DNA of 64,000 bases from Octopus vulgaris (Eukaryota), in contig OX597831.1 of assembly GCA_951406725.2 (NCBI GenBank), positions 12,090,001 to 12,154,000 of the forward strand. The letters are read 5' to 3'. Of the stretch, positions 28,801 through 31,800 are shown in pieces. Both the position numbers and the translations under genes were made by a program. Positions within the stretch are counted from its first letter, which is position 1, and the number at the start of each line of letters is the position of its first letter. The notes beneath the pieces are model-generated. The model did no database searches. It had not been told where the DNA came from and saw only the letters and a program-made list of their open reading frames with translations.

Positions 28801-31800
28801 AAGTATCAATTCTTAAGATTGATTTTTTATTGCTAAAAATGTTACTGACGACATTGATGTCAAAACATAAAAACAATTTAATATAATTTTGTTGATTATG
28901 ATCAAAGTGCTATTATCATATTAAATATTGCTCATTAATGTTTAGTTCTAAGAGACAGGTGTTCTCTTCAAGGTAAACTTTGACCATAAATTACAATTTA
29001 ATTGCATTTGAGATGAAGTATTTAATATTTATAATTACAAAAACATAAGTGAACAACAGTGAAAATACACTTCTGGTTGCGTAAAGCCTCAAGCACTAAC
29101 CAAAATGAGAAGATGAAATTAAACTAAATTATAGAAATGTTGCTTTACCTAAAGATGTATTCAATTACTACCTGCTAGTCAAAATTTCCATTGACGTACA
29201 GCCAAACTTAAATGTAGTGAGTGGAAAATAATTTTTAACCAATTCAAATTAAACACACAATGAGAAGAAAAATCATTAGCATTTATAAAAAATTATGCTA
29301 ATGAAGTTCTCTCCCTTGCCTTCTTTAGCAAGAATTTTTAACACCAATGTTTTGCTTTTCATTATGAATGTAATTTTTATTTATCAAGAATTCTTTTTAG
29401 CTCACTTTATTTAGTATGACAGGCTGCACTTAACTATATATTCTTTATGCAGAAGGTATTATTGTGAAATTTTTTTCCAGTATCAGATACACACACATAT
29501 AGAAGAGGCTCATGCACAAGTTTATAAAAAGTACTTACAGTCTAAAAAACACCAATTCAACGGCATTTCATCAACTACTGGACCAAATGTTTCCTAAAAC
29601 AACAAAACATTTTAATTTTGGTTTTTCTCTCAAAAGCATTTGCATCAATTTATTTATTTATTTAGTTATTTTTTAACTTCTGTTTACTTTAAAGACCAGT
29701 AAACTAAAACAATAAATGAACAGTTTGAAAGACAGCAATTTATTGAACCTTTACTCACAGAACAGGTCATCTACAAGTTTTCTTCTATTATGATTCCATT
29801 CACATCTAGAAAGTTCTAGAGGAGTATTAAATCTACAGCTCTATATTTAAGAGATGAGGAATTATATACATTATTTACATTTGACGGATATTTGTCCTCA
29901 TGTTGTTTGTTGTTAACACAACATTTCGGCTGATATACCCTCCAGCCTTCATCAGGTGTCTTGGGGAAATTTCAAACCTGGGTTCTCATTCCTAAGGTAT
30001 TTTTTGATGTTATTATTATTATTATTATCATTATTATTATTAGTATTCAGGTCACTGCTTGGAATCGAACTCGAAATCTTGGGGTTAGTAGCCCGCACTC
30101 TTAACCCCTACACCATATGCCCTTATTAAACCTACACCAGTAAATTGTTGTCTTTCAAACTGTTCATCTATTGTTTTATTTTAGTATTAAATCCACACCA
30201 AAACTCAGCTGGTATTTTAATTTAGCACCGGAAAGATAACAACAAAGTTGGATTTGAACTCATAATGCAAATAACTGTAACAAGATATAGCAGATATTTT
30301 GTTTGGGGACTCTTCTGACACTGAGTCACCAATACATCCAAACCAGACTGTTCTAACAGGATCCAATCCATTGTAAGCATTCAGAGCAGGAGCCAGTCTT
30401 AGAGATTCTGCAGAATACATCATCAAAATCAAATGGAATCTGTAGTTGTGATCCCCGTGCCATGTAAAAAGCACCATCTGAATGTGGCTGATGCCAGTGC
30501 CACCTTGACTGGCTTCCATGCTGGTGGTATGTAAAAAGCACCAACCGATCGTGGTCATTGCCAACCCCTCGGACCCCTGTGCTGGTGGCACGTAAAAAGC
30601 ACCCACTACACTCTCGGAGTGGTTGGCGTTAGGAAGGGCATCCACCTGTAGAAACACTGCCAGATCAGACTGGAGCCTGGTGCAGCCTCCTGGCTTCCCA
30701 GAGCCCAGTCGAACCGTCCAACCCATGCCAGCATGGAAATCGGACGTTAAACGATGATGATGATGATGTATTGTCATTCGTTTGACTTTGTCATTAAAGC
30801 ATACAAAATTCAAATTTATCCATTGCCATTTCATTTGGTCAACCTGAGGCTACAGTAAAAGACGCTTTGCCCAAGGCAAGAGAGTTCATTTATTGATTTT
30901 TTTAATGATGAATTTGATTCTTATTGGAGTTTTTGTTCCTTAAATACAAAATATCAATTTGCTTTACGTCTTAAACATAGCAAAACTAAATATTAGAGAA
31001 ACATAATGAAATAGAAGACTACAAAGAAAATGGTGATGATCTGTATTGACAGAAACTATAAAGTGAAAATAATGAGTCTGGACATGTTTTTATGGTAAGG
31101 GTAGAACAGCAATCTGATGTTTTGGAACTGACAATTTGTTGTTGTCATTGTCATCGCCAAACATCATCACCATCACCAGGATCACACATCACTGCTCCAT
31201 GCTGGCATGGGTTAGATGGGTTAATCTTATTTCTTTATTGTCCACAAGAGGCTAAACATAGAGGGGACAAAAAAGGACAGACAAAGGGATTAAGTTGATT
31301 ACATCGACCCCAGCACACAACTGGTACTTAATTTATCGACCCCGAAAGGATGAAAGGCAAAGTTGATTTCGGCGGAATTTCAACTCAGAATGTAACGGCA
31401 AACAAAATACCGCTAAGCATTTTGCCCAGTGTGCTAACGTTTCTGCCAGCTCACTGCCTTCTAAAAGTACAAATGTCTCCCTGGTGGGGAATTGAACCCT
31501 GGTCTCCTGCGTGATAGGTGGGGATACTTACCATTATAGTACCAAGGATGACACTGATGGGTTAATCTGATGGAGACTGCATCATGATCCAGCATCTATT
31601 TTGGTATAGTTTCTATGGCTGGATGCCCTTCCTAATGCCAATCCCTTTACAGAGTATATACTGGGAGTTTCTTTTTCATGACACCAGCACAATTGAGGTC
31701 ACCAGTCAGTTCACAACACTATGATCCCTGATGATGGTCGGGATAACTTTATTCGAGGGGAATGACAAATTGAAGTATAAGGTCGGAGGCAGAGTAAGTT

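Follow-up and report, generated by a model that had tools for sequence, protein, structure and literature searches.

The window analysed in this study is a stretch of 64,000 nucleotides (G000:C18:12090001-12154000) of the Octopus vulgaris genome, whose size is 2.8 Gb. The SINE-like repeats are referred to here provisionally as families B, C and D. Between two copies of a 13-bp direct repeat (GATGGGTTAATCT), one at 31215..31227 on the tail (3') side and the other at 31556..31568 on the 5' side, the window contains an insert composed of a tRNA-Asp-like sequence and a family C SINE, both on the minus strand. The insert interrupts an older family B element of the same strand, the 3' part of which occupies 31162..31222 and the rest 31569..31691. 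The repeat pair and the interruption had been described in a previous sequence-only reading of this DNA, and both were found as described, with family B sequence on either side of the insert. Many family C copies are present inside the window, and a second, younger family B copy is located on the plus strand at 30503-30768, 450 bases left of the insert.

The tRNA part is a decayed full-length copy of tRNA-Asp(GTC) (31477..31548, minus strand); its 72 nt without CCA are in place as previously noticed. It has 10 differences from the intact gene. The A box is altered by two changes and, judged from the letters alone, the B box fits and four T stand at the join with the SINE. The Rfam tRNA match (31477-31548, minus strand) scored 29.5 bits, just above the cut-off of 29, and ARAGORN gave no call on this copy because it has decayed (the anticodon is now ATC). 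Editing as the source of the tRNA changes (nine G>A and one C>T) was considered and dropped, as the SINE part shows both types. At 31549..31555 (minus strand) lies the 5' leader, previously given as the seven nucleotides AGTGTCA. The last six match the parent gene described below save for one CpG change (GTGTCG to GTGTCA), but the seventh is mismatched; hence 5-6 nt are parent-derived, and the outermost 1-2 nt are probably host sequence.

On the other side of the tRNA is a 14-nt pre-tRNA 3' trailer (ACATTTGTACTTTT; 31463..31476, minus strand), which ends in four T of the T5 terminator of the parent. It is followed by two extra bases, AG (31461..31462, minus strand), that are absent from both the parent trailer and the usual SINE start and are likely to be an untemplated addition. 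The SINE (31228..31460, minus strand, 233 nt) starts with AAGGCAG, ends in the tail AAAGAAATA and is indeed full length including this tail; it is ~10% diverged from the nearest family C copy. The T4-containing trailer had been recognized before, but with a length of 18 nt. Since solo family C copies begin with AAGG (A at -1 in 73% and at -2 in 80%, n = 51), this segment is better divided into a 14-nt trailer, two extra bases and the SINE's own AA.

To compare the filled and the empty site, five of 24 sequencing runs were used. A contig of organism D spans 31435-31629 with four differences, implying that the filled site is real. In one contig from one run of organism C, the left flank was aligned with 25 differences and four gaps in 442 positions; the contig also matches 31554-31598 (two differences) and then runs into the left-flank match, containing neither the tRNA nor the SINE, while 31557-31598 was uncovered in organisms B and E and in the second organism C run. 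Other joints among the run contigs were rejected, as they come from other family B copies (paralogous repeats). An empty site in a relative is thus represented by this one contig, which, together with the lack of any repeat around the window SINE alone, supports the earlier proposal that both parts were inserted as one unit. No duplication of the trailer was found after the window SINE. At the empty site, an older unit of 18 nt is followed by two tandem copies of the 13-mer. The 13-mer therefore flanks the insert as a direct repeat but is not the clean target site duplication (TSD) that had been assumed, and it may be partly older than the insertion, with the boundaries of the insert unaffected.

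Parent gene and reuse of its trailer

A genome search with the exact pattern of the tRNA end plus trailer gave 12 matches, including six tRNA-Asp copies and six chance matches. This trailer is present in only one intact gene, taken as the parent: a tRNA-Asp gene at G000 C10:4346890-4346961, within a tRNA-Asp cluster. When the 93 nt comprising leader, tRNA and trailer are compared, the window copy has 12 differences from it, eight of which are CpG transitions, and the trailer is identical (14/14), which supports an origin from an unprocessed pre-tRNA. Decay at CpG sites has followed the insertion, and the fusion copy is probably dead or inert. A gene combining the AGTGTCA leader with this trailer, which the sequence-only reading had anticipated, was absent among 12 tRNA-Asp(GTC) ARAGORN calls (from the 30-kb C10 cluster and a 10-kb C2 stretch) and the exact-pattern matches. 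A gene with the trailer exists, but in the same search set the genes with the AGTGTCA leader carry other trailers. Tandem tRNA-Asp(GTC) gene arrays were also observed at G000 C5:51226923-51304320 (L015, L024-L030), with a 158-bp period and ~40 units in several blocks.

The earlier explanation, in which transcription of the pre-tRNA passed a weak terminator and continued into a SINE lying downstream, does not agree with this gene. Its terminator is T5-C-T5 and not a weak one, and the first 45 nt behind it contain no start of a library repeat, nor was a family C head present in the 520 nt inspected. In addition, the same trailer was found on several types of repeats: on family C at three loci (the window, L003 and L042), on family D (L005) and on a LINE tail (L009 and L020), as well as with a microsatellite only (L006). 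Read-through from a single gene could not produce fusions with three different repeats, which implies that the parts were joined afresh at each locus. Among the family C cases, the junctions differ and the SINE bodies are 12-17% apart; the three grouped together in none of the 200 bootstrap trees built from 57 copies. These same-trailer fusions are therefore separate events and not descendants of a dimeric master, and a source locus at which a tRNA gene drives a SINE, as previously suggested, is not supported by one trailer joined to several repeat types at differing junctions.

A dimeric master copy was also considered in its own right and ruled out by the tree (no clade) and by the fact that identical junctions are DNA duplicates: the five identical LINE-tail junctions were assigned as such because they share flanks. 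In the family C tree, one supported subgroup contains chimeric copies in 8/9 cases, as compared with 27/57 overall; it may represent a subfamily or a period with more captures.

Dispersed tRNA copies and their partner repeats

The tRNA-Asp 3' pattern had 131 matches in the genome, from which 112 distinct loci were analysed (some came via searches favouring family C) and sorted into 48 gene-like loci and 64 dispersed copies. In 58 of the 64 dispersed copies, a SINE or LINE-tail partner on the same strand begins within 45 nt after the tRNA. These partners include 27 full family D, 8 full family C, 11 LINE tails, 6 truncated family B and 6 others, with three partners and three 'none' calls assigned by eye; thus, a full-length SINE is the partner in 35 of the 58. 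A partner was absent in only 6/64 dispersed copies versus 44/48 gene-like loci, and no true opposite-strand partner was seen at the dispersed tRNA-Asp copies. Trailers matched an analysed gene over at least 9 nt in 35/58 chimeras, whereas 9.6% of shuffled trailers did so. CCA follows the tRNA at one of the 112 loci, with one more case among the inspected family C loci (the CCA-ended L048 and L119); precursors therefore dominate the captured tRNAs. In L076 and L134, the copy extends past the first T-run to a second one.

Flanking repeats were less regular. Among 41 scorable tRNA-Asp chimeras (the end was not found in the other 17 of 58), a repeat of at least 9 bp surrounds the whole unit in nine (null 3.2%), five of which lie in microsatellites, and no such repeat was found in 32. 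A repeat of at least 9 bp around the partner alone was observed in 1/41, at a locus which also has the unit repeat. Family C chimeras have a unit repeat of at least 8 bp in 5/6 cases, and the automatic TSD search mostly fails for family D, which may be due either to the LINE that mobilises it or to the way its tails were delimited. Divergence of the tRNA correlates with that of its partner (rho 0.57, p 0.0006, n = 33), which could reflect a shared local mutation rate.

Some intact genes also have a partner. At L217 (G000 C18:2115324) and L213 (C3:23938788-23941168, three genes), tRNA-Asp shows 0/72 changes and a family D head or tail is located directly behind it on the same strand. The partners behind these four intact genes are 17-27% decayed. 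These loci are candidates for functional tRNA genes that originated as chimeric retrocopies; alternatively, SINEs may have landed on a terminator. L229, which has the L213 trailer, bears a full family D SINE and not the tail behind the L213 gene.

The class is not restricted to tRNA-Asp. A strict T-loop pattern combined with the partner start gave 199 matches of many tRNA types (76 with family D, 40 with family C and 83 with the LINE tail). As strict patterns miss decayed copies, the true total is likely to be several hundred by extrapolation. Inspection of 30 family C loci by eye revealed 24 tRNAs, one Pol III-like RNA and five cases of neither. Among 27 family D loci, ARAGORN identified Glu, Phe, Ile, Arg, His and Ser at the join; low-threshold ARAGORN calls were noise and were left out of the isotype calls. 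An opposite-strand control had 24 matches, none of which proved to be a tRNA end by eye; ARAGORN found no tRNA in the 10 of these that it was run on, a weak test since it misses decayed copies. With 67,648 family C heads in the genome, there are about five captures per 10,000 copies, and hence the capture rate per SINE is not high. One tRNA-Phe leader and trailer was found on family C, family D and the LINE tail (L252-L254). Captured tRNAs appear to keep their introns, judging from an intron-length match (92 nt) at the join in L105. In addition, the tRNA-Glu copies L249, L250 and L088 have a near-identical 5' truncation point and different partners, which suggests a reverse transcriptase (RT) stop at a fixed site.

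Other Pol III RNAs behave similarly. Among the first 30 of 185 U6 matches, a gene array accounts for 7; in 20 others the partner is a SINE or the LINE tail (six being copies of one event), in two it is another U6 and in one a 12-nt tail piece. The array comprises seven genes ~1.1 kb apart (G000 C1:139422700-139429773; L190-L196). Serial products were also observed, with tRNA, U6 and partial U6 in a row in L200:1366-1570 and two U6 in L204, suggesting repeated jumps in one event. Moreover, an RNA of ~100 nt, whose ends are complementary and which has A- and B-box-like motifs as well as a T-run, is present in copies joined to family C, family D or the LINE tail (L137, L247, L251, L242-L246). Rfam gave no match at the L137 join, and this RNA may be vault-RNA-like.

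The LINE tail is formed by the 3'-terminal 55 nt of an element that encodes an RT (3' end in L171) and has 7,787 exact matches in the genome. It often occurs on its own or following a tRNA or U6, with the same start base (L147-L176), which suggests a fixed stop or cleavage point. The protein of this LINE matched only RVT_1 in Pfam, and Atlas and PDB gave no clade; its motifs suggest that it may be CR1-like. Family D and another SINE end in tails related to the LINE tail. No LINE sharing the family C tail was found among 85 tails in the analysed loci.

Origin of the chimeras and comparison with known systems

We propose that the insert in the window is a single chimeric retrocopy, in which a LINE RT would have jumped from the family C SINE's 5' end onto the oligo-U terminus of a nascent pre-tRNA-Asp (probability about 0.7). 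The order of the parts, their common strand, the join within the terminator T-run, the full-length partner and the independence of the events are shown by the sequences, as are the parent gene with its trailer, the empty site without either part and the recurrence of this arrangement at many loci with other tRNAs, U6 and other partners. The RT would have started target-primed on the SINE tail at a nick, in keeping with the copying through this tail that had been proposed before, and would have copied the family C SINE RNA through to its 5' end. One or two untemplated bases (AG here) may then have been added to the cDNA, allowing the enzyme to hold the 3' end of the next RNA. The RT would have continued on the oligo-U 3' end of the nascent pre-tRNA-Asp from the G000 C10:4346890 gene, and the capture was presumably nuclear, before trimming, splicing and CCA addition. 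It has been reported that R2 RT requires untemplated base addition for template jumping in vitro (PMC8857657) and that it jumps onto tRNA in vivo (PMC3414825). Against a jump stand the lack of a flanking repeat in most chimeras outside family C, the failure to find a LINE mobilising family C among the 85 tails, and the decayed partners located behind the terminators of four intact genes. A wider version of this proposal is more tentative and, in our opinion, somewhat less than an even chance: the LINE RTs of this lineage may routinely finish a SINE or the 55-nt LINE tail and jump to any nascent oligo-U-ended Pol III RNA. Such jumps might be the main route of tRNA-copy dispersal, a source of ongoing SINE prototypes (a tRNA head with a bare LINE tail, as in the 83 strict matches) and the founder of the candidate working tRNA genes in L217 and the L213 cluster.

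Several other explanations have to be weighed, two of which concern the way in which the two parts were joined. Nascent Pol III RNAs are expected to have 3'-OH and 5'-triphosphate ends. It is thus unlikely that the pre-tRNA and the SINE RNA were ligated by RtcB, as for U6 and L1 RNA, and that the joined RNA was then retrotransposed: the partners are mostly full-length SINEs (35/58) with an expected 5' triphosphate, and the pre-tRNA is expected to end in 3'-OH. According to PMC6789731, RtcB ligation drops sharply with a 3'-OH donor or a 5'-triphosphate acceptor, although the same source demonstrated it for human U6/L1. The DNA structure left by ligation would be identical to that of a jump, U6 chimeras are common in the Octopus vulgaris genome too, and the single start position of the LINE-tail partners could be a cleavage site; the extra junction bases and the two CCA-ended captures suit a polymerase jump better. 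A free pre-tRNA cDNA might instead have been end-joined to the unfinished SINE 5' end during DNA repair, which would also place the fusion within one repeat pair, and repair is known to resolve the 5' ends of insertions (PMC2912911). This predicts both orientations and random breakpoints, whereas the joins are on the same strand and in the terminator T-run, and we consider such a capture extremely improbable.

The other two explanations are a two-step insertion and read-through. A pre-tRNA retrocopy may have come first and a SINE later into its T-run, perhaps by target preference. The four intact genes with a partner behind the terminator (L213 x3 and L217) would also be expected from insertion at terminators, and the 13-mer may predate the insertion. 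But the empty site lacks both parts, the trailer is not duplicated after the SINE, a partner is missing in few dispersed copies and in most gene-like loci, the partners are on the same strand only, and tRNA and partner ages correlate; two steps are thus quite improbable. It seems very improbable that Pol III ran past a weak terminator into a SINE located behind the gene, at a source locus since lost or changed. Pol III did pass the first T-run in L076 and L134, and a repeat does follow the terminator in some genes (L213 and L217); against this stand the T5-C-T5 parent without a SINE, one trailer on three repeat types, three family C cases with differing junctions and no clade in any of the 200 bootstrap trees, and the L213 trailer on the full family D SINE of L229 instead of the L213 tail.

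The relevance of these findings extends beyond this locus, which by itself is ordinary once the genome-wide class is known; the interest lies in the class rather than in the single locus. Template switching in the birth or head replacement of SINEs has so far been deduced from finished families. In the Octopus vulgaris genome, many raw products are preserved individually; the trailer of each points to a single gene, and the join lies at the terminator. The question of jump versus ligation raised by U6/L1 can be tested with this class on RNAs whose ends are expected to be unsuited to RtcB. The chimeras also form a fossil record of Pol III starts and end points and of germ-line-active tRNA genes. 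Finally, they give a warning that most dispersed tRNA matches in this genome are SINE passengers.

Previous reports of chimeric retrocopies provide the closest comparison. U6/L1 chimeras of mammals, lizards and fungi (PMC4476161; PMC2104539) likewise have a full small RNA at the 5' side and a retroelement at the 3' side on the same strand, lie within one short-repeat pair and arose in recurrent independent events. U6 has been found fused with L1, L2, RTE and SINEs, including U6-SINE in Anolis and opossum (PMC4476161), and double jumps have been reported (PMC2104539). The window insert shares with this type (PMC2104539) the full-length cellular RNA at the 5' side, the direct same-strand join (with two extra bases) and the flanking 13-bp repeats; it lacks the random 5' truncation of the 3' part, as its SINE is full length. 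In contrast to U6/L1, the 5' part here is an unprocessed pre-tRNA, and the 3' part is mostly a full SINE or a fixed-point LINE tail rather than a randomly truncated LINE.

Cases involving tRNA are also known. In primate tRNA/LINE-1 chimeras (bioRxiv 10.1101/2025.02.02.635956), a tRNA and a retroelement are likewise enclosed in one TSD; the 21 loci reported there are mostly opposite-strand tRNA halves, whereas here the tRNA is on the same strand with its 3' end and trailer intact, with 199 strict matches. Jumps of Drosophila R2 to tRNA and U12 (PMC3414825) also start at the 5' terminus of a full-length element and lead to a small RNA, but the source gives two cases, with one mature CCA-ended tRNA described and an autonomous element, while in the present class the carrier is a SINE and most of the captured RNAs are precursors. 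In humans, pre-tRNA is a substrate of the LINE machinery in tailless retropseudogenes (Schmitz 2004, as cited in PMC4476161 and PMC2912911); these are primed on the tRNA itself, 3'-truncated and without a partner, unlike the window copy, which has an intact 3' end, a trailer and a partner. The available text of two papers on octopus repeats (PMC13282606; PMC8967140) gives no account of tRNA-SINE fusions; the former lists U and U-L1 repeat classes. A full-text search, with most subscription papers outside its scope, found no report of chimeras of intact sense pre-tRNA and full-length SINE as a class or usual form.

Dimeric SINEs and other cases of head addition (tRNA+7SL, 5S+tRNA and SINEU; PMC4494074, PMC4824008, PMC13023118) also place a new Pol III head before an existing SINE, and template switching is the standing proposal for this process (PMC4758252, PMC4824008, PMC4494074, PMC13023118). 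Dimeric SINEs are amplified from masters, whereas the products described here are one-off, none of them shown to be amplified by retrotransposition, and the window insert shows no master-copy amplification. The previous view of this locus as a snapshot of dimeric SINE birth is thus relevant to a possible start of such families, though through a jump during copying and with no amplified dimer found. Chimeric retrocopies are already known from U6/L1, and the fusion of a pre-tRNA with a full SINE is a variant form of them.
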